Assembly: GCA_963727805.1 (NCBI GenBank)
Contig: CAVSHF010000003.1
Coordinates: 949,698 to 1,013,697 of the forward strand
Reading direction: 5' to 3'
Length of the DNA stretch: 64,000 bases
From: an uncultured Nitrospiraceae bacterium
GTDB lineage: Bacteria > Nitrospirota > Thermodesulfovibrionia > Thermodesulfovibrionales > Dissulfurispiraceae
In this document: positions 194 through 61,782 of the stretch, in pieces
Numbering within the stretch: position 1 is the first letter of the stretch
Layout of the letters: each line of letters opens with the position of its first letter
The notes under the pieces: model-generated
Told to the model about the DNA's origin: nothing
Databases searched by the model: none
The model's input: the letters and a program-made list of their open reading frames with translations, nothing else
Program-made: the position numbers and the translations under genes

Positions 194-3052
194 TTAATTA
201 TTTAATGCTTGAAGATTCCATGGAACTGTCACAAGGACCGTAGTTCCTGAATTAATAACCGATTGTATATCGATCTGACCGCCCATAGTATTTAACCGTT
301 CAGATATGTTTAAAATGCCGAATCCTTCATTGCTACCATTCGGTCTAATCTCAGTGGTGTCAAATCCCATTCCATCGTCTTTAACTGCTATTTTTATTTC
401 CTTAGCATCTCGCAGAACCGATATGCTTGCTGTTTCGGCTTTTGCGTGCTTCACGACATTGACCATCAACTCACGTACAATATTAAAAAGAAGGATGCGC
501 GTTGCATCATCAAGCGGCCTTTTATCCCCGTCAGTTTGAAAGTAAAACCTGACATCATATCTCCCTTGAAACTGCTCCACAAGCCGCTGCACTGCTGCAT
601 CAAACCCTAATTCGTATAGCATAGGTGGACTGAGATCCACCGTCAAGGTTCGCACGAATTGGATTGCCTGATCGATAAGCTCCCGAATTTGCTGGATTTC
701 ATCGCATGCCTCTGCTGAGTGAATCGACTCGGCTAATGCTCCCAACTCTATTCTTATAAGAGCGAGAATTTGTCCGATATTTTCATGAAGTCCGGTTGCA
801 ATGCGGCGTCTCTCGCGCTCCTCGGTTAAAGATAGCTGAGTCACAAGCGCTTTCAGATGTTTTTCGTGGGCTGTAATGGTTTCCTTGGACCGTCTGAGGT
901 CGGAAACCAAAACCGCCAACGACTCATTCACTCGGACGAGCTCTTTAGTCCTCTCCTTCACCCGCTCTTCCAATGTATCGTACGCTATTTTAAGCCCTTC
1001 CTCGGCCTGCTTGCGCTTACTGATATCCAGTATGGTCCCAATAATTGCTGGTCTATTTTTGTAGAAGACTCTGGAGCCGTATACCTCAACGTTTATGATT
1101 TCTTTAGTTTTCTTTATTAGTTTGAATTCATAATGAGCAGTTGTTATTTCGCCTCCTATTCGTCTTCTCATATTTTCTAAGATAATTGACAAATCATCCG
1201 GATGCGCAACTGTGTTGATAAATTTCTCATCCAGACATTCATCCACTGAATAACCGACCATTTTTACAAACTGTGGGTTTACATATTTCATCGCGCTGTC
1301 CTGTATGAGATAAATGCCCACGAGTGCATTTTCAGCGAAACTCTTGAACATATCTTCAGATTCCTTTAGCTGCTCTTCTGCAAGCTTCCGCTCAGAGATA
1401 TCTCTGCCGACAGACTGGTATTCAATAATGTCCCCGCGATCGTCGAAAATCGCACGATTCGTCCATTGATGCCAGTGCATATTCCCATCAGGAAACAGTA
1501 GGCGGCCTTCTGAGACGTTGTGAGGCTTGTCCTTTGTCAATGATTCAATCTGCCTTATCACTGCCTGACGGTCTTCCTCGTGAATGAGTGAATAGAAAGA
1601 ATTACCTAACAGATCCTCCGGCCTAGCTCCTAATGCCTTGATCAGTGCTCCATTCACATAGGTCAGTATACCGCCAGGGAGATGACGACTAACATACTCC
1701 GTCTGATTTTCAATGATATCCCGATAGCGCTCCTCACTTTTCCGCAACATATCGGCAATCCGGATTCGCTCCGCGATCTCCGCTTGAATCTTCTCTTGCA
1801 TTTTTTTCCGTGCGGTGACATCTCTGCCTATCTCTATCCCAGCAATGATTTCTCCCTTGGCATTCTTGAGGGAGGAAGCAGTGATTTCGATACATTTTAC
1901 CCCTTCGGGTACCTGAATCGTTCTTTCAACCCTATGTATCTGTCCATCCTGGAAAGCCATTGCCACGGGACAGCCTCCGCATTTCGATACATTGTATTCA
2001 TAAGTCAGATAACAATACTCACCGACATGGTCTCCAGAAAGCTCCTTCTGAGCGGCATTCTGATATATAATCCTGTAATCAAGATCCTGAATGGTAACGG
2101 CATCACCCATGCTGGCCAAGATGGCATCTGTTTTTGACTTTTCATCTTCAAGTTGGTTCACAGCTGCGGACAGTCCGCTTCGCAACTCACCCCAGTATGT
2201 GCCGAGCAATAATGGAATAGCCCATATATGGAGATTATGCCTGATCGGCGCATAAACGTTGACATAGCGATCATGAGCACTAATATTGAAAATCATGAGG
2301 AATTCGTCAAGGAAGAAGAACAAAAAGCCCAAGATTAATGTGTTTTGGACCTTGGTCCCTCGCCTTTTTGTAGACAAAAATATCCACAGAGCATACCCCA
2401 TAAAAATAGAGGCTGCCATTCTATCAGCCCACTCTCCCCAGAATGTGTGGAATGTCGCTCCCGGGTCATCTTTCAAATAAGCTGGCCACTGAAGGGCAAT
2501 TGCAACGTATAAAATAAAGGTAATCGCTGATGAAATGATTACAAATCTGCGGGATATATTCTTCTTCTTAACCAGATAATTCATAAATGCAAAGGCAATC
2601 AGAATGCATGACATCATCGTGGCAGCATGCTCTAGTGGCGGATAAAATTTATACATGAACTCAAAAGATATATACCCTCTTAAACTTCCGTATTCGGCCG
2701 TAAGCATGAGCAACTCTCTAGCCATTCCAATGACCGAAGCAATTCCTATATAAATGTCCTTTTGCGATTTGGTCTTCACCCATTCTTTGTATGCGACCCA
2801 AGCAAGAATGCTCCAGAAGAATGTGGGTAGTAGGAAGCGCACAGCCACTGGGCCGGGGGCCCCACCAGTGAGACCACCAAACTCGGCAAGAATTGCAAGT
2901 ATTTCTTTGGCTAAAATCATAACGCTGGTTTGAAGAATGAGATACAAGACAACTCCATCATCATCGTTTCCCCAAGCACCCAGTATACCACTTCCTGAAA
3001 TCACACAACAAAAGGAGCCCTCCACGCTCAGATTCTGGTCCTGAGAGAACAC
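194..3052 (-). CDS. Membrane-anchored multi-PAS sensor histidine kinase (HisKA_3/NarX-type H-box plus HATPase_c)
   Basis: 952-aa ORF. The N-terminal ~300 aa are strongly hydrophobic (multiple helices), followed by three PAS-like segments. H-box region RRRIATGLHENIGQILA. C-terminal ATPase motifs DDGMGFD and GFGILNISERL. The exact start is uncertain. Confidence 0.8.
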   Translation of the reverse strand: MFSQDQNLSVEGSFCCVISGSGILGAWGNDDDGVVLYLILQTSVMILAKEILAILAEFGGLTGGAPGPVAVRFLLPTFFWSILAWVAYKEWVKTKSQKDIYIGIASVIGMARELLMLTAEYGSLRGYISFEFMYKFYPPLEHAATMMSCILIAFAFMNYLVKKKNISRRFVIISSAITFILYVAIALQWPAYLKDDPGATFHTFWGEWADRMAASIFMGYALWIFLSTKRRGTKVQNTLILGFLFFFLDEFLMIFNISAHDRYVNVYAPIRHNLHIWAIPLLLGTYWGELRSGLSAAVNQLEDEKSKTDAILASMGDAVTIQDLDYRIIYQNAAQKELSGDHVGEYCYLTYEYNVSKCGGCPVAMAFQDGQIHRVERTIQVPEGVKCIEITASSLKNAKGEIIAGIEIGRDVTARKKMQEKIQAEIAERIRIADMLRKSEERYRDIIENQTEYVSRHLPGGILTYVNGALIKALGARPEDLLGNSFYSLIHEEDRQAVIRQIESLTKDKPHNVSEGRLLFPDGNMHWHQWTNRAIFDDRGDIIEYQSVGRDISERKLAEEQLKESEDMFKSFAENALVGIYLIQDSAMKYVNPQFVKMVGYSVDECLDEKFINTVAHPDDLSIILENMRRRIGGEITTAHYEFKLIKKTKEIINVEVYGSRVFYKNRPAIIGTILDISKRKQAEEGLKIAYDTLEERVKERTKELVRVNESLAVLVSDLRRSKETITAHEKHLKALVTQLSLTEERERRRIATGLHENIGQILALIRIELGALAESIHSAEACDEIQQIRELIDQAIQFVRTLTVDLSPPMLYELGFDAAVQRLVEQFQGRYDVRFYFQTDGDKRPLDDATRILLFNIVRELMVNVVKHAKAETASISVLRDAKEIKIAVKDDGMGFDTTEIRPNGSNEGFGILNISERLNTMGGQIDIQSVINSGTTVLVTVPWNLQALNN

Positions 3053-6312: not shown

Positions 6313-6819
6313 TTAAGCAGCAGTTTTTCTCTGAACGCATATGATATTCCACTCCTTTAGTTTATCAATGGTCAAATTTATGGCTTTCTCGATGTTGTCA
6401 TTAACAATGTCAGACATTTCAAGTCCAAAGGTGTGATCGGCCGCGGCCGGCTGGATGCCGATCAGGCAAAGATGGGAAGGCATGGATCCCCTCAGGTTGG
6501 CAGCTGTAAGGAGATCGGCAAGACCGAGATTATGCAGCGAAACCTTCGGGAAGATGAGAGCCGCTATTTCGTTGTCTTCGATGATTCCTACATAGCCCGG
6601 CTCTTTACCGAAATCCATGGCGTCGACGATGAGGACTTTATCGACGCTTTCGAAAAGAGGGAGGAGGTCGAGGCCCAGCGTACCGCCATCAACGATCTGA
6701 ATCCCAGGAGAACAGGCATATCGCTCTTTGATGGTATTGACCACGTGGACCCCGACCTGCTCATCTTTAAGCAGAATATTTCCCAGTCCTAAAAGTGCTG
6801 CTGACAAATTAATGACCAT
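6313..6819 (-). CDS. hyaD: [NiFe]-hydrogenase maturation endopeptidase
   Basis: 168 aa. Contains GNILLKDEQVGVHVV, DGGTLGLDLLP and LIVDAMDFG motifs. It overlaps the cytochrome b gene by 11 nt and is the last gene of the hydrogenase operon. Confidence 0.85.
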   Translation of the reverse strand: MVINLSAALLGLGNILLKDEQVGVHVVNTIKERYACSPGIQIVDGGTLGLDLLPLFESVDKVLIVDAMDFGKEPGYVGIIEDNEIAALIFPKVSLHNLGLADLLTAANLRGSMPSHLCLIGIQPAAADHTFGLEMSDIVNDNIEKAINLTIDKLKEWNIICVQRKTAA

Positions 6820-7453
6820 CCTCCATATTTTTATAACCGCTAAACATAGAGCTCATCAAACCATTCCTCTCGATGAGGTCATTGTGCCACGAGATGTATA
6901 TATGAACGATCACGAAAAGGCCGATGACCCACATAATCAAGTGGTGGACAAGCCTCAGATAGGCAACATTCATCAACCCCAGCGACCAGCCCCCGAGCAT
7001 TGTCCAAATCGCTCCACCCCCATGAGCCAACGACAACATGGCAAAGCCTGTGACTATCTGGAAGATGTAAAGACAGAACAGGAACGTGTACGAAAGTCCG
7101 GCCAACCCGGTATGTCCCGGATAGTGCGGCAGGTCCTTCCTGCAAAAAGCGTAAAACGATGCCGTACAAACCGTGTTGTCAAACCTCTCTTTGGACGTCG
7201 GGATAAACTGGTTGAGCTTTGCATACTTGTTGCCCGCAAACCACCAGTACATCCTCACTAAGACGCAGACCGTAAAGAGAAAGGCCGCGACAAAGTGAAC
7301 GAACCGCATGTAAGCCATGATCAGTGAATCGGCATCTCCATCCAAGAAGGGGGCGCCGATGTAAAACCCCGTTACGGATAGCACCACGATGCTCAACGCA
7401 ATCAGCCAGTGCGCCACTCGTACCGGGAACTCCCAAACATAGATTCGACTCAT
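6809..7453 (-). CDS. hyaC: Ni/Fe-hydrogenase b-type cytochrome subunit
   Basis: 214 aa with four predicted TM helices and conserved His residues (VRVAHW, FVHF, VHH, HIYISWHND). It lies directly downstream of the large subunit. Confidence 0.85.
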   Translation of the reverse strand: MSRIYVWEFPVRVAHWLIALSIVVLSVTGFYIGAPFLDGDADSLIMAYMRFVHFVAAFLFTVCVLVRMYWWFAGNKYAKLNQFIPTSKERFDNTVCTASFYAFCRKDLPHYPGHTGLAGLSYTFLFCLYIFQIVTGFAMLSLAHGGGAIWTMLGGWSLGLMNVAYLRLVHHLIMWVIGLFVIVHIYISWHNDLIERNGLMSSMFSGYKNMEDGH

Positions 7454-7463
7454 GGCGGCCTCC

Positions 7464-9161
7464 TTATTTCACTTCGACTTTAAAAAGCTCTTTATGTTCT
7501 GCGTCAAAGAGATGAATTGCGCAGGCCATGCAGGGATCAAAGGAATGGATTGTCCTCTGGATCTCAATAGGCTTGGAGGGGTCCGCAATCGGCGTTCCGA
7601 TAAGGGCAGCTTCAAACGGACTCTTCTGGCCTTTCGGGTCTCTCGGTCCGGCATTCCACGTTGTGGGGACGACGGCCTGGTAATTCTCGATCTTCCCATC
7701 TTTTATGACAATATAATGAGCGAGGGTGCCCCTCGGTGCATCGTGGAATCCGACGCCTTTGGCTTCTGCAGGCCAGGTTGAAGGGTCCCACTTGTCCGTA
7801 TTGGCGGTTTTCAGGTCACCCTTTTTCATGTTTGCAGCAAGCTCGCCGATCCAGTCATTTAACTTTCCGGCGATAATCGCTGTCTCAATGCCCCTTGCAG
7901 CGGTCCGGCCGAGTGTCGAGAAAAGTGCTGCCGGTCCGACTCCCAGCTTGCCAAGAACCATGTCGACGGTTTCCTTGACCTGTTTTTGTCCCGACGCATA
8001 GGCCACGAGGCATCTGGCGAGAGGACCCACTTCCATGGCCTGATCATCATATCTTGGCGTCTTAACCCAGCTGTATTTCTTGCTAGTGTCGAGAGACTCA
8101 TAAGGAGGCTTGGGTCCTGTATAGTTGGGGGTTGTTTCGCCCACATACGGATGCTTCGCCTTCGAATCGCCGCCCGAATAGCTGTACCACGAATTGTTGA
8201 TGTATTCAGTGATCTTCGCCGCATCGACAGGATATATCTTGCTCAAATCCTTGTCTTTGATGACTCCCGCTGGGAAAAAGAATTTCCCACTCGCATCGGG
8301 GAACTCACCGCACGCCAGGAAATTGTTAAAACTCCCGTGGCCAGCCCAATCCTTGTAGAACGAAGCGATCGCGAGTAGATCGGGGATATACACCTTGTTC
8401 ACAAAATCAACTGACTTCTGGGCGACTTCATTGAGGAATGCAATGCTTCCCGCATTGATGGCGTTCTGGCTGTTCGGGTCAACTGGAATGGACATACCAC
8501 CGACGAGGAATGTCTGCGGATGCGGATTTTTGGCTCCCAACAGTGCATGAGCACGGATAATGTCTCTCTGCCAGTCGAGTGCTTCGAGGTAATGGGCAAC
8601 AGCCATTAGGTTCGCTTCGGGAGGCAGCTTATATTCCTTGTGTCCCCAGTATCCGTTGGCGAAGATGCCGAGCTGGCCGCTCTCGACAAAGGCCTTGAGC
8701 TTGGCGGCGACAGACTTGAAGTAACTAACCGATGAGTTGTTCGGCCAATCTGAAATAGATGAAGCGAGGGCTGCAGTCTTTGCGGGGTCGGCCTTTAACG
8801 CGCTTACGACATCGACCCAGTCAAGGGCGTGCAGATGATAAAAATGGATTACATGGTCATGCACAGACTGGAATCCCATGATCAGGTTTCTGATTATGCG
8901 GGCGTTGTCGGGGATCGTAATGTTAAGTGCGTTTTCAACAGCCCTTATTGACGCAAGGGCATGGACCGTAGTGCAGACGCCACAAAAACGGGAAACAAAG
9001 GTCCAGGCATCTCTTGGGTCTCTGCCCTTCATCATGACTTCGACACCCCTCCACATTGTGCCCGATGCCCAGGCATCTACAATTTTGCCGCCATCGACCT
9101 GCGCTTCAACTCTTAAATGTCCTTCTATTCTTGTTATTGGATCAACGATTATTTTAGCCAT
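7464..9161 (-). CDS. hyaB: Uptake [NiFe]-hydrogenase large subunit (group 1)
   Basis: 565 aa. N-terminal RIEGHLR and RFCGVCT (Ni-binding CxxC). C-terminal DPCMACAIH followed by a 15-aa cleavable extension. Confidence 0.95.
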   Translation of the reverse strand: MAKIIVDPITRIEGHLRVEAQVDGGKIVDAWASGTMWRGVEVMMKGRDPRDAWTFVSRFCGVCTTVHALASIRAVENALNITIPDNARIIRNLIMGFQSVHDHVIHFYHLHALDWVDVVSALKADPAKTAALASSISDWPNNSSVSYFKSVAAKLKAFVESGQLGIFANGYWGHKEYKLPPEANLMAVAHYLEALDWQRDIIRAHALLGAKNPHPQTFLVGGMSIPVDPNSQNAINAGSIAFLNEVAQKSVDFVNKVYIPDLLAIASFYKDWAGHGSFNNFLACGEFPDASGKFFFPAGVIKDKDLSKIYPVDAAKITEYINNSWYSYSGGDSKAKHPYVGETTPNYTGPKPPYESLDTSKKYSWVKTPRYDDQAMEVGPLARCLVAYASGQKQVKETVDMVLGKLGVGPAALFSTLGRTAARGIETAIIAGKLNDWIGELAANMKKGDLKTANTDKWDPSTWPAEAKGVGFHDAPRGTLAHYIVIKDGKIENYQAVVPTTWNAGPRDPKGQKSPFEAALIGTPIADPSKPIEIQRTIHSFDPCMACAIHLFDAEHKELFKVEVK

Positions 9162-9174
9162 TTTTCATCTCCCT

Positions 9175-10242
9175 TTATTTTTCTTTATTTTTGCCTTTTG
9201 TGGCTGTCCTGATAGCTGCGTGAGCCGCTACGGCGGCCACTGCAACTGCCGCTATACCAAGGCCGATCTTGTCAGCGTTGGCCATAACACTCGCGCCAGG
9301 TACCTTGGGCATTCTCTTGTAGAACGGATATGCCGCGTCCCAGTTCCCCGGTGTCGAGCAGGCAATGCAGCCATGTCCGGCCATTACCGGCCAGCTCGTA
9401 CCACCGTTCCACCTGATTGTCGGACAGTTCTGATGTGCCATCGGGCCCTTGCAGCCCATCTCGTAAAGACACCATCCCTGCTTGGCCCCTTCGTCTCCCC
9501 ACGCCTTCACAAACTGCCCGGCATCAAAATGCGGACGCCTCTCACAGTTGTTGTGGATCAGTTTTCCAAAAGCAAACTTCGGACGGCCATTGCTATCCAG
9601 GGCGGGTAATGCACCAAAAGTGAGGAAATGTACTACGGTGGCGGTGAAGTTCTCTACGTTCATCGGACAACCGGCGATGTTGACGACTGTGCCGCCGATA
9701 GCTTCCTGAATACCAACATATCCACCCGGGTTTGGGGCGGCTGCGGAGAGCCCGCCGAAACAGGCACAGTTGCCTACAGCGATATTCGCCATTGCGCCGG
9801 CCGCGACTTCCTTGAGGATAGCCATCGAGGACTTCCCGGCAACGCAGCAATAGACTCCGCCGTCCTTCGAAGAGACTGCTCCCTCATAAACAGCGATATA
9901 CTGCCCCTTCTTGTTTTTCAGAATGTCCTGCAGCGATTTCTCAGCGGCTGTTCCACAAGGGGCCATGAGAGTCTCATGGTAATCAAGCGAGATGATATCA
10001 AGCACAATCTGCCCGATAGTCGGCTTTGTCGCCCTCAAGACTGATTCGGAATCACCGGTACATTCCGCAAAGTGCATCCAGACAACCGACGGTCTCTGCT
10101 TCTTTTCCAGGGCTTCGGCGATCTGCGGGACCGCTGAAGAGCTCAAACCTAAAGTCGCAGCTGTTCCAGCGCAAAACTTCAGGAAGTCCCTGCGCGACAC
10201 CCCTCGTCGCGTCAGATAAGAATAAATGCTCTCGTTCTCCAT
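9175..10242 (-). CDS. hyaA: Uptake [NiFe]-hydrogenase small subunit with Tat signal
   Basis: 355 aa. Twin-arginine motif SRRDFLKF, Fe-S cluster Cys ligands (ECTGDSE, GNCACFGG, CPTIRWN, GHGCIAC) and a C-terminal membrane anchor. Confidence 0.95.
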   Translation of the reverse strand: MENESIYSYLTRRGVSRRDFLKFCAGTAATLGLSSSAVPQIAEALEKKQRPSVVWMHFAECTGDSESVLRATKPTIGQIVLDIISLDYHETLMAPCGTAAEKSLQDILKNKKGQYIAVYEGAVSSKDGGVYCCVAGKSSMAILKEVAAGAMANIAVGNCACFGGLSAAAPNPGGYVGIQEAIGGTVVNIAGCPMNVENFTATVVHFLTFGALPALDSNGRPKFAFGKLIHNNCERRPHFDAGQFVKAWGDEGAKQGWCLYEMGCKGPMAHQNCPTIRWNGGTSWPVMAGHGCIACSTPGNWDAAYPFYKRMPKVPGASVMANADKIGLGIAAVAVAAVAAHAAIRTATKGKNKEK

Positions 10243-10344
10243 ACCCGTCCTCCTGTGACGAAATTTAACTCTACAATATAGAGTTAATGATGTCGATATC
10301 CATATGAAGCGAAAACGCCGAAAAATAGGCCTCCATTCTCAAAT

Positions 10345-10838
10345 TGGAGAGAGGCAGTGGGAATCGGACCCACTCTCGGTTCATTAATATATGGCAAGCG
10401 CTCAATTGCCTTGAACCGTGATGCTGGTTTTGCACACCAGATGAGGCACCAGCCCCATGCCCCCCGGAAACAGCTCAGAGTAGAGACGGTCATCTCCTAT
10501 TACTTCATCCATACGATGGAAACAGTAGCTTATTTGACCAGATATGGTTTCCGAACCGGAATGGCGAAACTGAAGAGTATTCATATTTTCATTCAATTCG
10601 CCTTTATTGATACGTCGTGGGTAGTTGTCTCAGAGAGTGTACTATATTTAAGGCCTATGCCTATGCCTATGCCTATGATAGCCCGGTGGATCATTAGCAG
10701 TTAAATTAATATAGATGATGTCAATATGTAAAATAGATTAATTGAATAGTTTAAACTGGAGTTATAGATTTGTCCCCACAATCTAAAGATGGATGGATGA
10801 TGACTGGCTGAGATCCAAGCGTTACATTAAAGTTGCAG
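10345..10838. repeat. Copy 1 of a ~495-nt paralogous noncoding element (candidate structured RNA or long leader upstream of the hydrogenase operon)
   Basis: Aligns by eye along its whole length with 44491-44986 in the same orientation. Shared hairpins include CTGGT-TTTGCAC-ACCAG (10424-10440) and CCAT-ACG-ATGG (10509-10519). On the minus strand it ends in GTGGG-TCCGATT-CCCAC...TCCA. It lies 103 nt upstream of the hyaA start. Confidence 0.7.
10653..10676. repeat. Hexanucleotide microsatellite (GCCTAT)x4 inside element copy 1
   Basis: Four perfect tandem GCCTAT units. The homologous position in copy 2 carries a shorter, degenerate version (gcctatgcccatgtctat). Confidence 0.9.
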
Positions 10839-11078
10839 ATTCGAAATCTACGGGACAGACAGCTTCAAAGAGCCCGCATAGGCCGCATTCAAAATGAATT
10901 AACCGGTGCCCTCTGTCAGCAGGTCGAAAGGCCTTGGCTATTTTATTAGGAAGACCATATTTCTGTAGGAAACCGCACTCGGACTAGCACTCTCCGCATT
11001 CAACGCATTTTTGGCTATCTCAGCCGTCACCGAAAGTGAAGAGATATTCATGTTTGTTCCCCGAGATGTATTCACCTT

Positions 11079-11882
11079 TTATTTTGCAATCGGCATCCCG
11101 GCCTCTTTCCATGAGGCATAAAGGGTCTGGAAGATATTCGGATAAGCAAGTTTCATCAATTTCCGGTACGCTATATAACTCCGACTTCCAGTGTTGCAAT
11201 AGACAATAATCTTTTTTCCCTTCGGTAATACATCGGATTTTGACGCAAAAACATCAACTGGAATATTAATTGCCGACGGGATATGTCCTTCATTGAATTC
11301 TCCAGGTTCTCTTACATCGACGAGCACGTAATCTCCTTTATCCTCTTTCAGAAGGCTTTGCACTTGAGCGGGACTCAGCATAATTGTCTCTATTTTTTTG
11401 CTGTAATTGGGGCCTGCAACAAAACACAGATCCTTCTCTTCCCAAACAGGAAATCCTTCACTGTAGACCATGATATTTTTATACCCAGCAATTTCCACCT
11501 TTTGCGCGAGTTTCTTGCTCTTGCCACATTTGATGCCATTACAGTAGATCACTAGAAGGGTATTTTTGTCAGTGGGAAGTTTTGATGAGGCATTTTCAAA
11601 CTTATTCTCTGGAATATTGATTGCATCGACGATGTGTGCATCATCATATTCTTCTTTTGTTCTGGCATCTATGAGGATAAATTCCATTTTTGAATCCATC
11701 ATTTCCTTCAGTGCTTCGGTGGTGACGACCTTAGATTCCGCAGCGGCACAGAGCCCAAAAACAAATAAAACACTCATTAACGTCAGGCAGACCAGTACTG
11801 CTCGAAATTTCCGAAATCTTATGGAATCCATCGTTCCTCCCTCAGGATTATCTTCAATGGAGAGTACCCGTCCTTTCTCCAT
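11079..11882 (-). CDS. Exported tandem-rhodanese sulfurtransferase
   Basis: 267 aa with an N-terminal hydrophobic signal or anchor. Two rhodanese domains carry active-site loops CNGIKCGKS and CNTGSRS. Confidence 0.8.
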   Translation of the reverse strand: MEKGRVLSIEDNPEGGTMDSIRFRKFRAVLVCLTLMSVLFVFGLCAAAESKVVTTEALKEMMDSKMEFILIDARTKEEYDDAHIVDAINIPENKFENASSKLPTDKNTLLVIYCNGIKCGKSKKLAQKVEIAGYKNIMVYSEGFPVWEEKDLCFVAGPNYSKKIETIMLSPAQVQSLLKEDKGDYVLVDVREPGEFNEGHIPSAINIPVDVFASKSDVLPKGKKIIVYCNTGSRSYIAYRKLMKLAYPNIFQTLYASWKEAGMPIAK

Positions 11883-12227: not shown

Positions 12228-12782
12228 TTATTTTACGCTTTCCATAGGATAATCCGCCTCTTTCCAAGCCTTAATCCCACCGGGATGTCGATAGACATTC
12301 TTATAGCCGAGTTTGATCGCCCACATCGCTGCGTTATGGCTACGGGTGCATTCCGTAAACCCACAATAAAAGACAAGCGTCCGGTTTTTGTCTGGTCCAA
12401 GGAGTTTCTCGAACTCGGTCTTCTTATTCTCATCCAACACGGTCACTTCCGGGATCGGGAACTCGAACTGGACGGCTCCCAATATATGATTTTTTTTATA
12501 GCTTGCCTCATATGGCATGGTATCGACAATGAACATGTCCTTCTTTTGGTCAATCCAGGTCTTTAATTCCTCAGTGGTAACTATTTTATATCCGCCTCGT
12601 TCCAGTTCGTGGGCGAAGTTCACAGCGACCTTTTCGGTTTCAAGGTCTTTGTTGCCCAATGAATAGGCACTCGGTGAAAAAGAGAGAACCAGCAAAAAAA
12701 CAAATAGACAAAATAGTGTCTTCTTCGGCATCGTTACATACTCCTTTAGTTTAGTTAATAGATTGGATTGAGCCAAGTCCAT
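12228..12782 (-). CDS. Exported single-domain rhodanese-like protein
   Basis: 184 aa with a signal peptide. Contains the rhodanese loop FYCGFTECTRSHNAA and the ending KAWKEADYP. Confidence 0.8.
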   Translation of the reverse strand: MDLAQSNLLTKLKEYVTMPKKTLFCLFVFLLVLSFSPSAYSLGNKDLETEKVAVNFAHELERGGYKIVTTEELKTWIDQKKDMFIVDTMPYEASYKKNHILGAVQFEFPIPEVTVLDENKKTEFEKLLGPDKNRTLVFYCGFTECTRSHNAAMWAIKLGYKNVYRHPGGIKAWKEADYPMESVK

Positions 12783-42401: not shown

Positions 42402-43223
42402 TTAAGATATCTTCGCTGCCTTGGCGATCGGTGGGGTCGGGATATTCGAGCCGTGACGTTCGATGCAGTTGCTCTGAGCAGTGATACCGTAGTTTGCAGA
42501 AGATACAGTACCATTCGTTTCGTACTTGCCGTCCTTCCAGGCATTCAAAAGTTTGACAACATGATAGACCGTGCTTGCGGTGACGCGGGCACAACGGTCC
42601 TTTCGTTCGGGGCTCTTAAGATCTTTGTCTGCTGCCTTCATCCATTTGCAGACCGATATGTGGCAAAAAGGAGAATCGCTGACTGTTTTAGGAAGGACAG
42701 TTTTGATCCTGGGATTGCTGGGCGTGAAGATCGGCATCTGCGCATTGGCATACCAATCAAGCATTTCGCCTCCCATCAGCGCGCCATCTTCAGACCCGGC
42801 TATCCGAGGCTTATTATCATATTGGCCACTATATTGGCTCCCATAGGCGCGCCGCAGATGGTCCCCCATCCCATGATTCCACCTTCGAGAAGGAGCAAGA
42901 GTCTATATGAAAAGACTTGTATGGCTCTCCAACTTTCTCTCTCAGCTGAGTGAAGACGCTGCTGATCACGGCCGCGCCGCAAAGAGTCGACACCATTCAT
43001 TATGGGCAAGTGCAGCGGTTTGCGCAGGGTCAAGCTTCACATACGGCCATGGCCATTTTTCTGTCGGCCCTTCCCTGGCTTCCGCGTTAGAAAGTAAGTT
43101 CCCGAGCTGATCGGCAGTCGAGCCGATAGCTAATAATCCTGCACCTGCAATGAACTTTCTTCTTGAAACCGTGTCGTTTCCGGATACCTTTTTTTTAATC
43201 CTCCTTTGTATGAAATTATTCAA
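42402..43223 (-). pseudogene. Tat-exported C_GCAxxG_C_C / split-Soret-cytochrome-like redox protein, disrupted by three frameshifts
   Basis: The N-terminal piece (42966-43223) has SRRKFIAGAGLLA and KWPWPYVKLDP. A frame-0 piece reads CGAAVISSVFTQLREKVGEPYKSF. A frame-1 piece reads GGIMGWGTICGAPMGA. The C-terminal piece (42402-42869) reads LDWYANAQMP...FCHISVCKW...RCARVTAS. The reading frame moves the same way three times and returns to the original frame. Confidence 0.65.
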
Positions 43224-43286: not shown

Positions 43287-44375
43287 CTAGTCCTTCATTG
43301 GCTTGATGAACATGAAGTAGACCATCGTCCAGTTGCCGAGGATTATAAATATGGTCGCCACGATGCTTGATAGGGCGAGGGATGAAACGCCGGTCAACGC
43401 ATGACCTACGGTGCATCCCCCTGCAGTCGCTGCTCCAAAGCCCATAACGAGGCTGCCAAGGAAAACCCGTATGATTTCATTCGCCGGAGGGGCCTGTAAT
43501 TTGAATTCGCCGAGTCCTTTGGCGCTAATGTAAGCGCCTAGTGGAATACCCAAAATATATAAAGCACTCCAGGTGCCCTTGAAAATCCCCCAAAAATTAA
43601 ACATAGGATCGAATTTGGACATACTGTCTCCCATCGTCACGGCTAGGAATGCCTCTGCCGTCGGTCCCGCCGCCGAAAGGCCTCGTGTCTGCCCTCCCCA
43701 GTAATTTGATGCCCAGAGCGCAAAGATAAGGATCACGCCGATCATGGCGCCGGTGAGGGACCATGAATAGCCTTTCCTCGGTCCCTTGGCAAAGGGCTTC
43801 CCTTTCAGGACAATCGGAATGATGATGAGAGCGATAACGCCGATGACTGCCCATTTCATCGATAACCCGCCAAAGATATCCCACAACGCAGGGTTGAAGA
43901 CGGCCTCATCGCCGCTGCCAATCGAAACTTTGTAGCTCTTCAGGAATTCCATGACTGGTTTGAGGGGACCATGATAGGTAGCGATAAGAGAAGAGGCAAA
44001 ACCGAGAGTGGCCACGAGAGCGGATGTATAGCCTTCTCCCACACGGTATATTATGCCGCTACCGCAACCGCCGGCCATCACAATGCCAAGTCCGAAGACA
44101 TAGCCGCCGACCATATTGGCGATAACATTGAAGGATTGCCTCCTGAGACCGAAATCACCCATAAATCCGAAGTCTTCAAGCAGATTCGCGCCAATGATTG
44201 CGATCAAAAGTGCCAGCAGATATGACCGGAATAAGGTAAAGTCTTCGAGAAATATGATGTCTCTAAAAGCCGAATTCATGCAGTAACGACCTCTCTGAAG
44301 AACAAAACCGAAAAGAATACCGACAAAGAGCCCACTTGCCAATACCATAAAACTTGCCTGCTGGACTTCCTCCAT
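43287..44375 (-). CDS. yeeE: YeeE/YedE-family sulfur (thiosulfate) transport membrane protein
   Basis: 362 aa, about 9 TM helices. Conserved Cys loops GRYCMNSAFRD, GGCGSGIIYR and GGCTVGHALTG. Confidence 0.85.
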   Translation of the reverse strand: MEEVQQASFMVLASGLFVGILFGFVLQRGRYCMNSAFRDIIFLEDFTLFRSYLLALLIAIIGANLLEDFGFMGDFGLRRQSFNVIANMVGGYVFGLGIVMAGGCGSGIIYRVGEGYTSALVATLGFASSLIATYHGPLKPVMEFLKSYKVSIGSGDEAVFNPALWDIFGGLSMKWAVIGVIALIIIPIVLKGKPFAKGPRKGYSWSLTGAMIGVILIFALWASNYWGGQTRGLSAAGPTAEAFLAVTMGDSMSKFDPMFNFWGIFKGTWSALYILGIPLGAYISAKGLGEFKLQAPPANEIIRVFLGSLVMGFGAATAGGCTVGHALTGVSSLALSSIVATIFIILGNWTMVYFMFIKPMKD

Positions 44376-44490
44376 AGAGCTTCTCCTTTTTCTTCAATTA
44401 ATCATTTGTGTGGCAATGCCACGACTACCGAATTATCTCCTTTCGTCCATATGACGAACGACCAAGCCGACTTTTTCAAAAAAGGAACAA

Positions 44491-44986
44491 TGGAGGGGAG
44501 CAGTGGGAATCGAACCCACCACGGCACCTTATGAGTGCGACACACTGCTTTGACGCCCGTATGTCTTTAGCCGTGACACTGGTTTTGCAGACCAGGTGAG
44601 GCGCCAACCCCGTGCCCCCCGGGAACAGCTCACAAAAGAGACGGCTCCCGCCTTTTACGCTATCCGTACAACGGAAACAGCAGGTTATTTGACTTGATAT
44701 GGGTTCCGAACTGGAACGGCGAAACTGAAGGGTATTCATATCTTCATTCGGTTCGCCTTTTTTGATACGTCGTGGGAAGTTGTCTCGGAGAGTGTCCTAT
44801 ATTGAAGGCCTATGCCCATGTCTATGATAGCTTGGTGGATCATTTGCAGATAATTTAGTATTGCTTCAATATATATGTCAAATTGTTTTTGTGGATGGCT
44901 TAAACGGGAGTAATAGATTTGTCGCTACAATCCAAAAACTGGCGGACGCCGAATGGCGGAGAATGCGGGCGTAACATTAAAGTTAC
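44491..44986. repeat. Copy 2 of the ~495-nt paralogous noncoding element (upstream of yeeE)
   Basis: Aligns with 10345-10838. Hairpins CTGGT-TTTGCAG-ACCAG (44579-44595) and CCGT-ACA-ACGG (44664-44674). On the minus strand it ends in GTGGG-TTCGATT-CCCAC-TGCTCCCC-T-CCA. It lies 116 nt upstream of the yeeE start. Confidence 0.7.
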
Positions 44987-45582
44987 CGGTAACCAACGGT
45001 GTCCCTGAAATATCCGATGCGTTGACTTTTTGGTAACATCAAATAAATGTTCCAGCGATGTTCCTATAATCGACAATGCACTCGACACGGTGAAGACGCT
45101 TTGTTTCAATAAGTAATCGAGAGCGGTACTGTTCGTCAATCTTTACCGAGTTCGTCTCCCTGTCATGTTTGTGAGCGTATAGATAAAAGATTCTCTCAGA
45201 GGAAAAGAACGATAGTTGAGATAATATTTTGAAAGTAATTTGCTATAATTAAACGAATAATAAGAGGTTTATGCTCCACTTTAATCTGCTAGCGTGATAT
45301 CTTTCATAGCGCCAGAAGAAGACAGGGGTAGCTGTAAATATGTAACGCCTCGAAGCAGGCTAAGTTCAGTCATCTGATAAAAGGGTGCAATTGATCTCTT
45401 TTGGAAAAAACATCTTTGGCCGGAAGTCGTCTCCAACCAAGACATCTACGCTAACTTCGGGCAACTCCCTCCAAAAGTATTTATCTCGCATCACAAAAGA
45501 TCGATCTGTTGCTAACGGTGATATAATCAAGTTTCAGACCTCAAGCAAGACAACAGCGATCGTAAACAGGTGGAGATAGACC

Positions 45583-47895
45583 ATGGCAGAAAGGAATAAG
45601 CGCAAGATGCCAGATGATCATTCATACTTACGCCGGAGAGCCGAGGAGGTGCTGAAAGGGCACGGGGAATTGGACAAAATTCCCGCCGCTCATTTAACGC
45701 GCATATTTCACGAGTTACAGGTGCATCAGATGGAGCTGGAGATGCAGAATGATGAACTTCGCCGTACGCAGCAGGAACTCGAAACAGCCCGCGAAAAATA
45801 TTTTGACCTATATGACCTAGCCCCATCGGGATATGTCTCCCTAAACGAAAAGGGAATAATACTGGAGGCCAATCTAGCGTTCGCAACATTGTTGGGAGTA
45901 GAGAGAAGCAATTTAGTCGGGCAGCCGCTGTTCCGGTTCATATACAGGGAAGATCAGGACTTATATTACCATTGTCATAAACAGCTTGTTGGAACAAATG
46001 CGAATCAGGCGTGCGTACTGAGAATGGTGAGAAAGAACGGTGCCTCACTTTGGGTGCAAATCGATATCAGCACAGCTCAAGGCATCGACGATACGACGGG
46101 GTCCCGCGCAGTCATAATCGATATCACTGAGCGGAAACAGATAGAGGAGACGCTGAAGAAAAGCGAAAAGCGCTATCACTCGCTCTTTGAAAACATGTCT
46201 GAGGGGTCTGCTTACTGCAAAATGCTTTACGACAATAACGGCAGCCCGACAGATTTTGTCTACCTCGCGGTCAACTCGGCATTCGAATGGCTGACCGGAT
46301 TGCACAATGTAGTGGGTAAGAATGTCACAGAGGTAATCCCAGGGATTAAAGAGTCACATCCGGAGTTATTCGAGATATATAGCCGGGTGGCATTGACTGG
46401 TCGGCCGGAGAAATTTGAGATCGAATTCAAACCTTTGGTGTTATGGTTCTCTATTTCAGTTTATAGCACTGAAAAGAATTACTTCGTAGCTGTTTTTGAT
46501 GACATTACCGAGCGTAAGCAGGCGGACCGTCGCCAGACACTTTCGGCTCAAATCCGTGGCATTCTGAACGATCCGCCTGCCATTGCTGATGCAATCAGCC
46601 GTATCATCACCGAAATTAAGAGGGACATGGTCTTTGACGCTGTGGGAATTCGCCTGCATCGCGGTGATGACTTTCCGTATGTTGCTCAGGACGGTTTTTC
46701 TAAAGAATTTCTCATTAAGGAAAATACGCTAGCTGTTCGCAGTCAGAATGGCGGGGTTTGCATGGATAAAGATGGCAACATCAGCTTGGAGTGTACCTGC
46801 GGTCTGGTTATTTCCGGACGGACTGATCCGACAAATCCCGTTTTTACTCCGAGGGGAAGCTTCTGGACCAACGAGTCATTTACATTATTGGATCTCCCGA
46901 TTGACAAGGATCCGAGGCTTCATCCTCGGAACCGCTGCATACTCGAGGGCTTTCATTCCGTGGCTCTCATTCCGCTGAGGGCCGGCAGCCAGATCGTAGG
47001 CATACTGCAACTCAACGATCGTAGACCCAACCGATTCACACCTGAGCTAATCTCTTTCTTTGAAGAACTGGCCGCCATTATTGGCATTGCTTTTGCGCGT
47101 AAGCAGGCGGAGGAGGAGATGAAAGAAGCAAGGGAACTGAGCGATGCCTTGAACTTAAAGCTCGAAGAGGCCAATAAAGACCTAGAAGCTTTTAGCTATT
47201 TGGTTTCTCACGATTTGAATGCACCCCTACGTCACATGACAGGCTTTGCGAAACTGCTGCAAAAGCGGATGGAAGAGCAACAGGATGAAAAAAGCCGCCA
47301 GTATGCACTCTTGATATCCGATGCGTCGACAAAGATGGCGAGGCTTATCGATGACTTGCTTTCCTATTCACGTCTTGGCCGCGAAGAGATGCCAAAGAGG
47401 GAAGTGAACTTAGATCACCTCTTAAAGGAGTCCATCGATGAGATTTCAGAGGAAACGAAGGAGCGGGACATTATGTGGAAGCTTGGTGATCTGCCCACAG
47501 TCTACGGTGAACAGTCGATGCTGAAGCTTGTGCTCGTCAATTTCATCTCCAACGCGGTCAAATTCACAAGTACTCGACCCAGAGCCGAAATCGAAATTGA
47601 CTGCAACAAGGGCGAAAAAGAGGTTATATGTTTTGTTAAAGACAACGGTGCTGGGTTTGATATGAAACACGTGGACAGACTCTTCGGAGTATTCCAACGC
47701 CTCCACACACAGGACGAATTTGAAGGCACTGGCATCGGCCTAGCAAATGTTCGTCGTATCATTTCGTTGCATGGAGGCAGGACATGGGCCGAAAGCTCTG
47801 TGGGTAAAGGAGCTACGTTTTACTTTACACTTCCAATACCGAAAGAGCAAGAATATAATGTGCTCTCCCCAGGGGATCAGGCACCTGAAAGATGA
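45583..47895 (+). CDS. Cytoplasmic PAS-PAS-GAF sensor histidine kinase
   Basis: 770 aa with no TM segment. It has a coiled-coil N-terminus, two PAS segments, a GAF-like region, the H-box SHDLNAPLRH, and ATPase motifs DNGAGFD and GTGIGLANVRRI. Confidence 0.85.
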   Translation: MAERNKRKMPDDHSYLRRRAEEVLKGHGELDKIPAAHLTRIFHELQVHQMELEMQNDELRRTQQELETAREKYFDLYDLAPSGYVSLNEKGIILEANLAFATLLGVERSNLVGQPLFRFIYREDQDLYYHCHKQLVGTNANQACVLRMVRKNGASLWVQIDISTAQGIDDTTGSRAVIIDITERKQIEETLKKSEKRYHSLFENMSEGSAYCKMLYDNNGSPTDFVYLAVNSAFEWLTGLHNVVGKNVTEVIPGIKESHPELFEIYSRVALTGRPEKFEIEFKPLVLWFSISVYSTEKNYFVAVFDDITERKQADRRQTLSAQIRGILNDPPAIADAISRIITEIKRDMVFDAVGIRLHRGDDFPYVAQDGFSKEFLIKENTLAVRSQNGGVCMDKDGNISLECTCGLVISGRTDPTNPVFTPRGSFWTNESFTLLDLPIDKDPRLHPRNRCILEGFHSVALIPLRAGSQIVGILQLNDRRPNRFTPELISFFEELAAIIGIAFARKQAEEEMKEARELSDALNLKLEEANKDLEAFSYLVSHDLNAPLRHMTGFAKLLQKRMEEQQDEKSRQYALLISDASTKMARLIDDLLSYSRLGREEMPKREVNLDHLLKESIDEISEETKERDIMWKLGDLPTVYGEQSMLKLVLVNFISNAVKFTSTRPRAEIEIDCNKGEKEVICFVKDNGAGFDMKHVDRLFGVFQRLHTQDEFEGTGIGLANVRRIISLHGGRTWAESSVGKGATFYFTLPIPKEQEYNVLSPGDQAPER

Positions 47896-48038: not shown

Positions 48039-49061
48039 TTACGTGGTGGCGTCAATATTTTCAGGAGAAGAGACTTTCGGCAAATATACTCCCACTTTTG
48101 TGCCGCGGCCCGGTTTGCTGTCTATAAGGATCTTCCCCTTATGCCCCTCAATGATTTTTTTTGCTATAGGCATCCCCAGTCCCGATCCGGAGCTCTTCCT
48201 TGTATAATACGGAATGAAAATATTTTCCAGTGTCTCCCTGTCCATTCCCGGTCCATTGTCCTCGATTCTAATGAGAAGATGCGACTTCTCGGGCGACATG
48301 CTGATGCGAACATGCTGCCCTTTGCCCGATGCCTCGATTGCGTTATTGATGAGGTTAGAGAGCGCCCGTTCAACCCGAAAGCCATCAACTTCAGCCATTA
48401 CAGATTGCGAAGGAAGATCAAGTGTAAGTAAGGTGCCGTTTTCGTCAGCCTTCAACTTACAGGCTTCGCAGGATTTGTTAACAATATCCCGGATATCCTG
48501 CGCTTTGATCTCCAGCATTATCGGTTTCGCGAAGTCAAGAACATCAAATACTATCTTTTGCATGACCTCTGCCGATTCCATAATAACCTCGGCGGCGGTA
48601 TCGTTATTCTCCTTTTTTTCCATAATGCGTTTGGCAAATCCCATGATAGTAATCAGCGGATTTTTTAGGTCATGCACTATCATCGTCGCTGCCTGCCCCA
48701 GACCCATAAGATAGCGGTCTCTTTCGGATTGTTTGCGATATCGCCTTTCCCGGTCTATGAATGCGCCGGTAAGGACAGCAAACATGCCTATAAAAAAAAG
48801 GGCCAGAAGTCGTTCGGACAGAAAGGTCCCTGTAAGGTTCAGAAAAACATAGGGGAGATAAAGCACCAAAACAAAAATAAAGGCGCCGATTGCACCCCGT
48901 AACCCGAAAAATAACGCCCCCAGCAGAACAGGTATATAGTACAGCTCGGCATATATGCCGAGCAAAGCGTGTATTGAAACAACCGTAGAATAGTGCAGAT
49001 AGCTTATCAGTATCGTCAATGCGGAAATAACTGCCACAGAATATTTATTTCTATTGCTCAT
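48039..49061 (-). CDS. Membrane sensor histidine kinase (multi-TM input, HisKA, HATPase_c)
   Basis: 340 aa with about 4-5 N-terminal TM helices, the H-box VHDLKNPL, and EDNGPGMD and GSGLGMPIAKKI. Confidence 0.8.
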   Translation of the reverse strand: MSNRNKYSVAVISALTILISYLHYSTVVSIHALLGIYAELYYIPVLLGALFFGLRGAIGAFIFVLVLYLPYVFLNLTGTFLSERLLALFFIGMFAVLTGAFIDRERRYRKQSERDRYLMGLGQAATMIVHDLKNPLITIMGFAKRIMEKKENNDTAAEVIMESAEVMQKIVFDVLDFAKPIMLEIKAQDIRDIVNKSCEACKLKADENGTLLTLDLPSQSVMAEVDGFRVERALSNLINNAIEASGKGQHVRISMSPEKSHLLIRIEDNGPGMDRETLENIFIPYYTRKSSGSGLGMPIAKKIIEGHKGKILIDSKPGRGTKVGVYLPKVSSPENIDATT

Positions 49062-61709: not shown

Positions 61710-61782
61710 AGCCACCTGCCGGAATCGAACCGGCGACCTACTGATTACGAATCAATTGCTCTACCAGCTGAGCTAAGGTGGC
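61710..61782 (-). tRNA. tRNA-Thr (anticodon CGU)
   Basis: A 73-nt cloverleaf folded by hand. Acceptor GCCACCT/AGGTGGC, D arm GCTC-AGCTGGTA-GAGC, anticodon arm ATTGA-TTCGTAA-TCAGT, T arm GCCGG-TTCGATT-CCGGC. CCA is not encoded. Confidence 0.85.

Follow-up and report, generated by a model that had tools for sequence, protein, structure and literature searches.

A predicted cysteine tRNA of selenocysteine-tRNA shape at the head of sulfur-transporter and hydrogenase operons in Nitrospirota

A stretch of 64,000 nt from the genome of an uncultured Nitrospiraceae bacterium (assembly GCA_963727805.1, contig CAVSHF010000003.1, positions 949,698 to 1,013,697 of the forward strand; the whole stretch is called the window) holds two diverged copies of a noncoding element of about 0.5 kb, one ahead of a [NiFe] hydrogenase operon (copy A, 10345-10838) and one ahead of the gene for a YeeE/TsuA-family transporter (copy B, 44491-44986). 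It is probable that each copy is the 5′ module of its operon, composed of a regulator and promoter region of ~140 nt, a leader of ~230 nt and a cysteine tRNA with the shape of selenocysteine tRNA (tRNA-Sec), and that the module was duplicated by the split of an ancestral sulfur-transporter/hydrogenase operon. In the relatives that share the long leader, an upstream open reading frame (uORF) runs through the tRNA to the start of the next gene, and it is this embedding of a tRNA in a uORF that could be new.

The two copies are homologous end to end and in the same orientation, as a preliminary description of this DNA had proposed by eye. Aligned with MAFFT, 10245-10938 and 44376-45086 are collinear with a mean column identity of 81%, and a 25-nt pattern common to both copies has exactly two matches in the window, against an expectation of 0 from shuffles. 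Identity is 69% in the upstream regulatory block, 79-82% in the leader and 86% in the tRNA core, and it is at the random level in the variable arm of the tRNA (46%), in the trailers before hyaA and yeeE (48%) and outside 10838 and 44986 (45%). The random-level identity of the flanks means that the boundaries given in the preliminary description were correct, and the low-coordinate ends, 10345 and 44491, prove to be the exact CCA 3′ ends of tRNA-like genes on the minus strand. From these ends it is 102 nt to the start codon of hyaA (10242) and 115 nt to that of yeeE (44375), in keeping with the gaps of about 100-115 nt estimated earlier.

Predicted tRNAs at the CCA ends of the two copies

The low-coordinate 121 nt of copy A and 130 nt of copy B are predicted to form, on the minus strand, a tRNA with the architecture of tRNA-Sec and the identity of a cysteine tRNA. 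In both copies the acceptor stem has 8 bp (by direct reading, its strands in copy A are GGGGGGCA and UGCCUCUC), the D arm has a 5-bp stem and a 4-nt UGGU loop, the anticodon stem has 6 bp with one bulge and a 7-nt loop (GUGCAAA in copy A, CUGCAAA in copy B), and the T stem has 5 bp (GUGGG/CCCAC) and no bulge. The discriminator U73 and an encoded CCA after it are found in both copies and in all 22 homologues described below. A GCA anticodon and U73 are the main identity elements for cysteinyl-tRNA synthetase (CysRS).

Single-sequence folding yields the cloverleaf in both copies (z = -2.8 for A and -2.3 for B). At relaxed thresholds, the Rfam tRNA-Sec model (RF01852) matches 10349-10465 with 44.7 bits and 44495-44620 with 46.1 bits, both on the minus strand and both with E ~1e-7; the scores stay under the gathering score of 47 because of variable-arm insertions of 33 nt (A) and 41 nt (B). 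The Rfam tRNA model scores both copies lower than the tRNA-Sec model does. The orthologues of relatives exceed the gathering score of RF01852, with 48.6-59.1 bits, and a covariance model of our own, built on the alignment of the 22 homologues, gives 103.5 bits (E 3e-26) for copy A, 121.2 bits (E 5e-31) for copy B and no third copy in the 64-kb window. ARAGORN makes no tRNA call at either window copy or in the relatives. Such tRNA genes thus escape standard annotation, and the genomes of this clade would therefore carry unannotated tRNAs of 104-132 nt. The only RNA gene that standard tools (ARAGORN; Rfam at gathering thresholds) find in the window is a tRNA-Thr (CGU) at 61710-61782 on the minus strand.

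How widespread is this tRNA? The homologues of the window YeeE lie in Nitrospirota (Thermodesulfovibrionales, Dissulfurispiraceae and 'Nitrospiraceae' metagenome-assembled genomes); the loci or contigs of these relatives are given as L-numbers here (L002-L050). A pattern on the anticodon and T arms retrieved 20 true homologues among species-representative genomes, all in Nitrospirota, and two chance matches, and a metagenome scan yielded further homologues. The preliminary description had proposed to collect homologues from related genomes or metagenomes, and 22 distinct ones were gathered. All of them come from Thermodesulfovibrionales or Dissulfurispiraceae, to which the tRNA family found here is, judging by these sequences, confined.

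The covariation among the 22 sequences supports the cloverleaf: 97.6% of cells are paired, and eight pairs show changes on both sides, in the acceptor stem, at the outermost pair of the anticodon stem and in the closing helix of the variable arm (helix 4), where three pairs have compensatory changes. Not one of 500 shuffles attains these values, and pairing is only 48-65% in slid controls. In 21 of the 22 homologues there is no variation in the anticodon loop CUGCAAA, U73, CCA or the T loop UUCGAUU; the variable region measures 35-63 nt and the whole tRNA 104-132 nt. Several features picked out earlier by eye find their identity here. The hairpin CTGGT-TTTGCAC-ACCAG is real and is the anticodon arm read as its reverse complement, and the segment that could not be aligned and was closed by different stems in the two copies is the variable arm, with a closing helix that covaries. 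The hairpin CCAT-ACG-ATGG / CCGT-ACA-ACGG, by contrast, is confined to copies A and B.

The long variable arms have a purine-rich asymmetric internal loop (5′ nAAAG; 3′ AUAAGG or AGAAGG) between the closing and the inner helix, which looks like a protein-binding or tertiary-contact motif, and the inner helix is capped by GAAA in some lineages.

Copy B is the orthodox, yeeE-linked copy. Its variable arm, T arm and trailer resemble those of relatives, and over 133 nt that include the variable arm its identity to L014 is 83%. Copy A is derived: the first base of its anticodon loop is G, where the other 21 have C, and its T loop is UCCGAUU, with C where 21 have U. The variable arm of copy A is unrelated to the arms of all relatives, yet the copy as a whole still pairs throughout; all helices are kept, and the anticodon stem has a compensatory U-A pair. 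Copy A may not work as a tRNA.

To which class does this tRNA belong? The tRNAs called selC* tRNA-Cys or tRNA-ReC have U73, a GCA or UCA anticodon and a tRNA-Sec-like shape (PMC5389517, PMC7609411, PMC13582414), are reported from Firmicutes, Thermodesulfobacteria, Nitrospirae/Thermodesulfovibrio and delta-proteobacteria (PMC5389517, PMC7609411) and are delimited by an operational length of at least 80 nt (PMC13582414). The window copies, with 121 and 130 nt, exceed this length, and the tRNA has every sequence-level feature of the class; the earlier opinion that no known family fits is thereby overturned for this part of the element. Shared with selC* tRNA-Cys are the Sec-like cloverleaf, the near-match of the tRNA-Sec model, U73, GCA, a length above 80 nt and an occurrence in anaerobes (PMC5389517). 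The GCA anticodon and U73 set it apart from canonical tRNA-Sec, with UCA and the SerRS identity element G73, and it also differs from canonical tRNA-Cys, which has a 7-bp acceptor stem, a 5-bp T stem, a short variable loop and ~74 nt and is detected by standard finders.

Within the class, the acceptor and T stems of 8 and 5 bp differ from the 8 and 4 bp with a bulged A51a of delta-proteobacterial selC* (PMC5389517), and the gene heads yeeE, GCAxxG-family or hydrogenase genes, whereas delta-proteobacterial selC* adjoins selB*/cysS*. Falling outside that 8/4 subtype, with an unbulged 5-bp T stem and yeeE or hyaA downstream, does not exclude membership, because each phylum has its own selC* arrangement (PMC5389517). 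Other traits unlike described selC* tRNA-Cys are the 35-63-nt variable region in a tRNA of 104-132 nt and, in one clade, the 230-nt leader and the position of the tRNA inside a uORF. To our knowledge, tRNAs of 104-132 nt are among the longest tRNA-shaped genes. None of selA, selB, selC, selD and cysS is present among the ~50 window ORFs scanned.

A single transcript would start at the shared promoter and extend over the leader and the tRNA into the downstream genes; the tRNA would be freed by RNase P and by processing of its 3′ end, and CysRS would charge it by analogy with other members of the class, which are charged by CysRS and used for translation in E. coli, as also shown in vitro (PMC5389517). 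The main rival to this reading is that the tRNA-shaped segment acts in cis as a mimic in the 5′ untranslated region (UTR), recognized by RNase P, CysRS or another tRNA-binding protein, and sets the processing, stability or translation of the mRNA with no ribosomal role. A mimic would fit the place in the 5′ UTR, which in several species is 22-39 nt ahead of the start codon, and it would fit copy A, whose helices are intact despite the C in the T loop and the replaced variable arm. It would also fit the metagenomic L039/L045 lineage, where the tRNA-like gene (L039 1730-1835, L045 2682-2787) has lost the 3′ strand of the D stem and the whole anticodon arm by an in-frame 24-nt deletion, and where no CCA is encoded; the leader, the acceptor, variable and T arms and the ORF through the tRNA are kept in both of these independent contigs. 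However, an intact anticodon would be unnecessary in a mimic, and a working tRNA-Cys under selection would be expected to show just the invariance that 21 of 22 homologues have in the anticodon loop, U73, CCA and T loop. The charging and use of members of the same class in E. coli (PMC5389517) also argue for a tRNA, and the mimic is, in our view, improbable.

Some points count against a working tRNA that heads its operon. The window copies score slightly under the Rfam tRNA-Sec threshold and escape ARAGORN, and copy A has C at the otherwise invariant T-loop position equivalent to U55. The tRNA function is dispensable in the L039/L045 lineage. In L022, a terminator-like hairpin, read from the sequence, separates the tRNA from yeeE, and co-transcription may therefore not hold everywhere. 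Finally, we infer transcription, processing and charging alike from sequence.

Table 1. Positions of the two modules, their parts and the genes that follow them in the window
Feature	Coordinates	Strand	Details
Upstream conserved block A	10733..10838	-	two AATCTAT motifs ~31 nt apart
Predicted promoter A	10703..10732	-	TTTACA, 18-nt spacer, TAATTT; consensus match by eye, unlisted in promoter scan
Leader A	10466..10696	-	~230 nt, predicted start (placed by the promoter-like match only) to tRNA 5′ end
Predicted tRNA, copy A	10345..10465	-	121 nt; anticodon GCA at 10433-10431; U73; encoded CCA
Variable arm A	10373..10416	-	long irregular hairpin; closing helix CGGUUCA/UGAACCG
uORF A	10402..10584	-	60 codons; AUG 119 nt before tRNA; stop inside variable arm; alternative start 10596
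Trailer A, tRNA to hyaA	10243..10344	-	last 41 nt (10243-10283) match pre-hyaA sequence of relatives
hyaA, [NiFe] hydrogenase small subunit	9175..10242	-	first gene after copy A
Hydrogenase large subunit, Cys type	7464-9161		follows hyaA
Cytochrome b	6809-7453		hydrogenase operon
Maturation protease	6313-6819		hydrogenase operon
Upstream conserved block B	44882..44986	-	from alignment and segment identity
Predicted promoter B	44852..44881	-	TTGACA, 18-nt spacer, TAAATT; promoter scan 10/12 matches
Leader B	44621..44845	-	~225 nt
Predicted tRNA, copy B	44491..44620	-	130 nt; anticodon GCA at 44588-44586; loop CUGCAAA; U73; CCA
Variable arm B	44519..44571	-	closing helix CACGGC/GCCGUG and inner 7-bp helix
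uORF B	44476..44739	-	87 codons; AUG 119 nt before tRNA; spans whole tRNA; stop 10 nt past CCA in T6 run
Trailer B, tRNA to yeeE	44376..44490	-	61-62% identical to trailers of L032, L039, L041; T6 run just after CCA
yeeE/tsuA-family transporter gene	43287..44375	-	downstream of copy B; NCBIfam TsuA, E 1e-72

Promoter and leader

The promoters predicted in copies A and B are homologous to the TTTACT-18-TACATT of relatives and to the promoter-like site that stands directly upstream of the tRNA where the leader is short. They lie on the minus strand, which is predicted to be the transcribed one, in agreement with the minus-strand operons of the preliminary description. The conserved block upstream of them is partly conserved in L032, L036, L014 and L016 and is presumably a regulator-binding region. 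A promoter and leader module shared by the hydrogenase and yeeE operons, as suggested earlier, is thus borne out.

Is the leader itself a structured RNA? It is confined to a Dissulfurispiraceae-like clade (A, B, L014/L018, L016, L032, L036, L039, L041, L044, L047, L048 and L050), and most species with the tRNA-yeeE unit are without it. The conserved block reads AAAGGCGA...AUG...UUCGCC GUUCC-N5-GGAAC in leader A. When nine lineages are folded together with RNAalifold, the leader gives two small hairpins (GGCGA...UCGCC around an AUG, and GUUCC-N5-GGAAC) with 16 pairs and -11.6 kcal/mol over 237 columns; the covariation term is +0.13, and there is no covariation signal. No curated RNA family (riboswitch, T-box or other) matches the leader in Rfam at E < 10. 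The leader is not a folded RNA domain. Long-range helices suggested by RNAalifold on two sequences were rejected, as they are gone with nine lineages.

The preliminary description had taken the element for a large structured RNA or a shared long leader. The first proposal, by which the full ~0.5 kb would form a single large structured noncoding RNA or an extensively folded, riboswitch-like leader, is largely refuted and must be considered very unlikely. It could draw on how well the 494 nt are conserved between A and B and on the hairpins common to them, but the structured part shrinks to the tRNA of 121-130 nt. Beyond this part, Rfam offers no family, most tRNA-yeeE species do without the leader, the nine lineages retain only the two small hairpins, and the CCAT/ATGG hairpin is specific to A and B. 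Covariation in the larger alignment, which had been named as a check on the structure, is thus found in the cloverleaf and not in the leader; likewise, the Rfam check on both copies returned tRNA-Sec just under its gathering score for the tRNA part and nothing for the rest.

The leader pattern CCCACGACGTATCNNNNAAGGCGAA has no match in species-representative genome contigs (source genome not included) or in metagenome contigs; the A/B-specific leader sequence is private to this lineage. A sigma-54 promoter in the GTGGCATTGCCAC hairpin was rejected by eye, its spacing being off by one and the motif not being conserved in copy B, and an intrinsic terminator in the leader was likewise discarded after one weak match in copy B only, which is not conserved. 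A (CCTATG)4 microsatellite on the plus strand (10653-10677) lies at the start of leader A; copy B has ~2.5 units (~44812-44835) and other lineages have one.

Gene neighborhoods and a probable split of the operon

The position of the tRNA directly upstream of yeeE or of GCAxxG-family genes is fixed. In every contig recovered for close relatives of YeeE (all of L002-L015), the tRNA-like part stands directly upstream of yeeE, and the rest of the element is mostly absent. Ten loci, about half of those that could be read, have yeeE as the downstream gene; in six others it is a gene for a GCAxxG-family protein with a twin-arginine translocation (TAT) signal, which follows directly or after a small membrane protein. 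The CCA end lies 22-39 nt before the yeeE start in some relatives. In L002 and L012 the distance is 21-22 nt, with only a Shine-Dalgarno sequence between them, and a promoter-like TTGACT ... TATCAT lies 8-57 nt upstream of the 5′ end of the tRNA; because of this promoter-tRNA-ATG geometry, the tRNA would be the 5′ part of the yeeE transcript in these two.

The cluster neighbors in relatives are rhodaneses, TusA, a transglutaminase-like protein and a class-V aminotransferase, with a LysR regulator in several loci. The context is one of sulfur (or selenium) trafficking. The gene heads sulfur-trafficking operons (yeeE, the GCAxxG protein, rhodaneses, TusA) and Cys-type hydrogenase operons rather than selB*, which would put its physiological context in sulfur or selenium supply. 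The window yeeE is 85-88% identical to the element-linked yeeE of relatives. The hydrogenase behind copy A was considered as a selenocysteine (Sec) enzyme or a target of UGC recoding and rejected as such; it is of the ordinary Cys type, its large subunit carries DPCMAC with TGC codons, and nothing pointed to recoding.

How did one operon come to have the element twice? In sister lineages, tblastn finds a single element in the order rhodanese (184 aa-like), rhodanese (267 aa-like), element, yeeE, in some cases the GCAxxG gene, hyaA and hyaB. Copy A has the ancestral flanks, namely the rhodaneses (12228-12782 and 11079-11882) and hyaA, without yeeE. Copy B is found 34 kb away with yeeE and the GCAxxG gene. 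The sequence before hyaA points to the same origin: BLASTN aligns the hyaA-proximal part of trailer A with L036 5345-5384 (90%), L014 3957-3996 (88%) and L032 3232-3282, and in these relatives hyaA follows yeeE or the GCAxxG gene. In the leader, copies A and B are mutually nearest, with 73% identity against at most 54% to any other lineage, so the duplication belongs to this lineage alone.

From these sequences we infer, as the simplest history, that the operon split and that neither half lost the promoter, leader and tRNA module. The ancestral cluster would have divided so that copy B left with yeeE and the now frameshifted GCAxxG gene, while copy A remained in the ancestral place, flanked by the rhodaneses and hyaAB, and both halves would thereby have retained the same promoter and leader. 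Copy A would later have been altered in the variable arm, T loop and anticodon loop, and it may now act mainly as a leader. If so, the window documents an operon split with duplication of a promoter, leader and tRNA module. The co-regulation of H2 uptake and sulfur import that the preliminary description had read from the shared element is plausible, for the historical reason that in relatives yeeE and hyaAB follow one element copy in one cluster.

Could the repeat instead be mobile, or could it be an attachment site that was duplicated when an island targeting a tRNA gene integrated? The two copies in direct orientation 34 kb apart would suit this. In L022, moreover, a second, partial tRNA-like copy (2093-2185, minus strand; 78 bits) extends from the D arm to the 3′ end with a short variable arm and without a matching 5′ acceptor strand; it lies 2.1 kb downstream of the complete copy, is entered by a transposase-like ORF of 195 aa and is followed by a transglutaminase-like gene. 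However, the window has just two copies, with no terminal inverted repeats or target-site duplications, and relatives have one syntenic copy; the many dispersed copies with target-site duplications that the preliminary description had named as a refutation were not found in the window. The homology extends ~370 nt 5′ of the tRNA at only 81% identity, unlike attachment-site repeats, the intervening 34 kb holds ordinary genes (Tol-Pal, phosphoglycerate mutase, Fe-S proteins), and no integrase or transposase is among the ~40 ORFs scanned between the copies. The mobile origin is barely credible.

Some smaller features belong to this region. The GCAxxG (TAT-signal) gene of the window (42417-43178, minus strand) matches its 260-aa orthologue in L014 over the full length with three frame changes and in-frame stops; either it has become a pseudogene or indels of the assembly cluster in it. 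A hairpin (GTGGCAATGCCAC / GUGGCAUUGCCAC; 44410-44422 in the window) is conserved in almost every long-leader locus (L032, L036, L041, L044, L047, L048, L050), where it precedes the start of yeeE (or of the GCAxxG gene) by 30-40 nt; it is absent from trailer A and could serve processing or regulation. In seven of eight long-leader loci (window 10320-10344 and 44470-44490, minus strand; L032, L036, L039, L041, L044), the CCA is followed after 8-25 nt by a run of 5-7 U, which is too distant from the acceptor helix for a canonical intrinsic terminator. A remnant of the yeeE start in trailer A (CATATGGAT) is not claimed; the resemblance is weak and by eye, and the first 58 nt of the trailer are without a significant BLAST match.

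A reading frame through the tRNA

In the long-leader clade, the tRNA lies inside a uORF. Its AUG is conserved in 12 of 12 lineages and stands 119 nt before the tRNA in 11 of them (139 nt in L036), a spacing that is kept although the sequence between is at random identity across lineages. In relatives the uORF spans the whole tRNA and stops between -28 and +11 nt from the downstream start, in all nine non-window lineages with a visible gene start. The stop overlaps AUGGAUGA, the start of yeeE, in L014, L041, L044 and L047 and the start of the GCAxxG gene in L048, and it lies 12 to 28 nt before the downstream start in L036, L032, L039 and L050. In the window, uORF B ends ~100 nt before yeeE, and one extra T in the T6 run of copy B would carry it to 35 nt before the yeeE start.

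Several observations bear on whether this frame is open by chance. The other two frames hold 4-12 stops, and dinucleotide shuffles of leader and trailer yield an ORF as long as the real one in 2-5% of trials for each lineage; the tests are roughly independent, because the trailers and mid-leaders of the L014, L036 and L032/L041 groups are essentially unalignable. The T arm is crossed in different frames by different lineages, yet the same terminal frame is regained (...VALPR...KEM..G*), and L036, with 20 nt more of leader, uses a different frame through the tRNA that is still open. No uORF-frame stop falls inside the tRNA in the long-leader clade except in copy A, whereas 12 of 15 short-leader tRNAs have at least one. 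The 24-nt deletion of the anticodon arm in L039/L045 is in frame, and the uORF persists. Gene callers independently predict these ORFs, as hypothetical proteins of 111-129 aa. One or both of uORF positions 20 and 21 hold a Cys codon in 10 of 12 lineages, with the two in tandem in five.

In eight of nine lineages a three-codon mini-ORF (AUG or GUG, two codons, UGA) precedes the uORF, and its stop overlaps the uORF start (AUGA); it is found at 10581-10592 and 44736-44747 in the window, both on the minus strand, and also in L014, L016, L032, L039, L041 and L044. A programmed +1 frameshift at UUU UGA in trailer B was rejected, since the +1 frame closes after 18 codons.

Does the frame encode a functional small protein, to which the resemblance to tRNA is secondary? 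The frame is open in every lineage and called by gene finders, and an N-terminal motif (M-x-x-x-x-F/L-R-R-S-S-S-E) recurs in it, but variable positions in six lineages fall 12/17/12 on the three codon positions (hand count), in agreement with the 8/12/8 between A and B that the preliminary description had reported as evidence against selection on a protein; the frame through the tRNA and T arm shifts between lineages, the middle and C-terminal parts are at random identity, the conserved N-terminal codons overlie the two RNA hairpins, and short-leader species have the tRNA without the ORF, so that the protein-coding reading of the uORF is rejected as scarcely tenable. The element is noncoding, as had been proposed, in the sense that no protein sequence is conserved in it.

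What might a uORF without a conserved peptide do? In the long-leader clade, ribosomes on the uORF would unfold the tRNA and end at the yeeE start, which would couple their translation to that of yeeE. In the competing fate, the tRNA would fold and be excised, and the mRNA would thereby be cut. Stalling at Cys codons 20-21 may bias the choice; a dependence on the supply of cysteinyl-tRNA is hypothetical, and if true it would suit a sulfur-uptake operon. If translated, the uORF ties the maturation of a tRNA directly to translational control. We put forward as a possible, though doubtful, model a new kind of attenuator, in which ribosome progress, set by the supply of cysteinyl-tRNA, would choose between read-through coupled to yeeE, with the ORF terminating on AUGGAUGA, and excision of the tRNA; the window would then hold a post-split state, with one copy taken over by the [NiFe] hydrogenase operon and the uORFs shortened. 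The coupling has its own difficulties. The Shine-Dalgarno sequence of the uORF is weak or absent in most lineages, the peptide is not conserved, and with both uORFs of the window truncated, the model may not hold for this DNA.

The arrangement has partial parallels in bacteria. In E. coli, the tRNAs of thrU-tyrU-glyT-thrT-tufB come from the 5′ part of an mRNA and are released by RNase P and RNase E-type processing. There, as here, tRNA and protein gene would be co-transcribed and co-regulated; the tRNAs of that operon are ordinary elongator tRNAs, the protein gene encodes a translation factor, and no ORF crosses the tRNAs. A parallel in structure is the Alphaproteobacterial tRNA-Sec nested in the selB ORF (PMC8124441), where a full tRNA also lies in an ORF that overlaps the start of the next gene and where, again, the tRNA is proposed either to fold and be processed or to be read through by ribosomes that translate the ORF around it. 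That ORF encodes a genuine, conserved protein (SelB), and the tRNA is a true tRNA-Sec (PMC8124441), whereas here a short uORF without a conserved peptide surrounds a tRNA of cysteine identity, the gene to be coupled is a sulfur transporter, and the window ORFs are truncated. Leader-peptide attenuators, among them the cysteine-responsive uORFs reported from mycobacteria (bioRxiv 10.1101/834739), are similar in that a short ORF with cognate codons precedes an amino-acid-related operon. Unlike such attenuators, the present leaders yielded no terminator/antiterminator pair, the ORF of 60-129 codons crosses a tRNA, and there are only one or two Cys codons.

In the searchable literature we found no report of the linkage to yeeE or hydrogenase, the size of 104-132 nt, the leader or the ORF through the tRNA; a 2017 supplement and a 2018 survey of tRNA-ReC lay outside the comparison and may already show some of these. 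An ORF through a tRNA that ends on the next start is the second bacterial case of a tRNA in an ORF found in the literature searched, and the first with a leader ORF.

Genes for PAS-domain sensor histidine kinases are abundant in the window (194-3052, minus strand; 45583-47895, plus strand; 48039-49061 and 49210-50613, minus strand), and copy B has one of them as its divergent neighbor. Directly upstream of the element, short-leader relatives have a gene for a LysR-type regulator instead.

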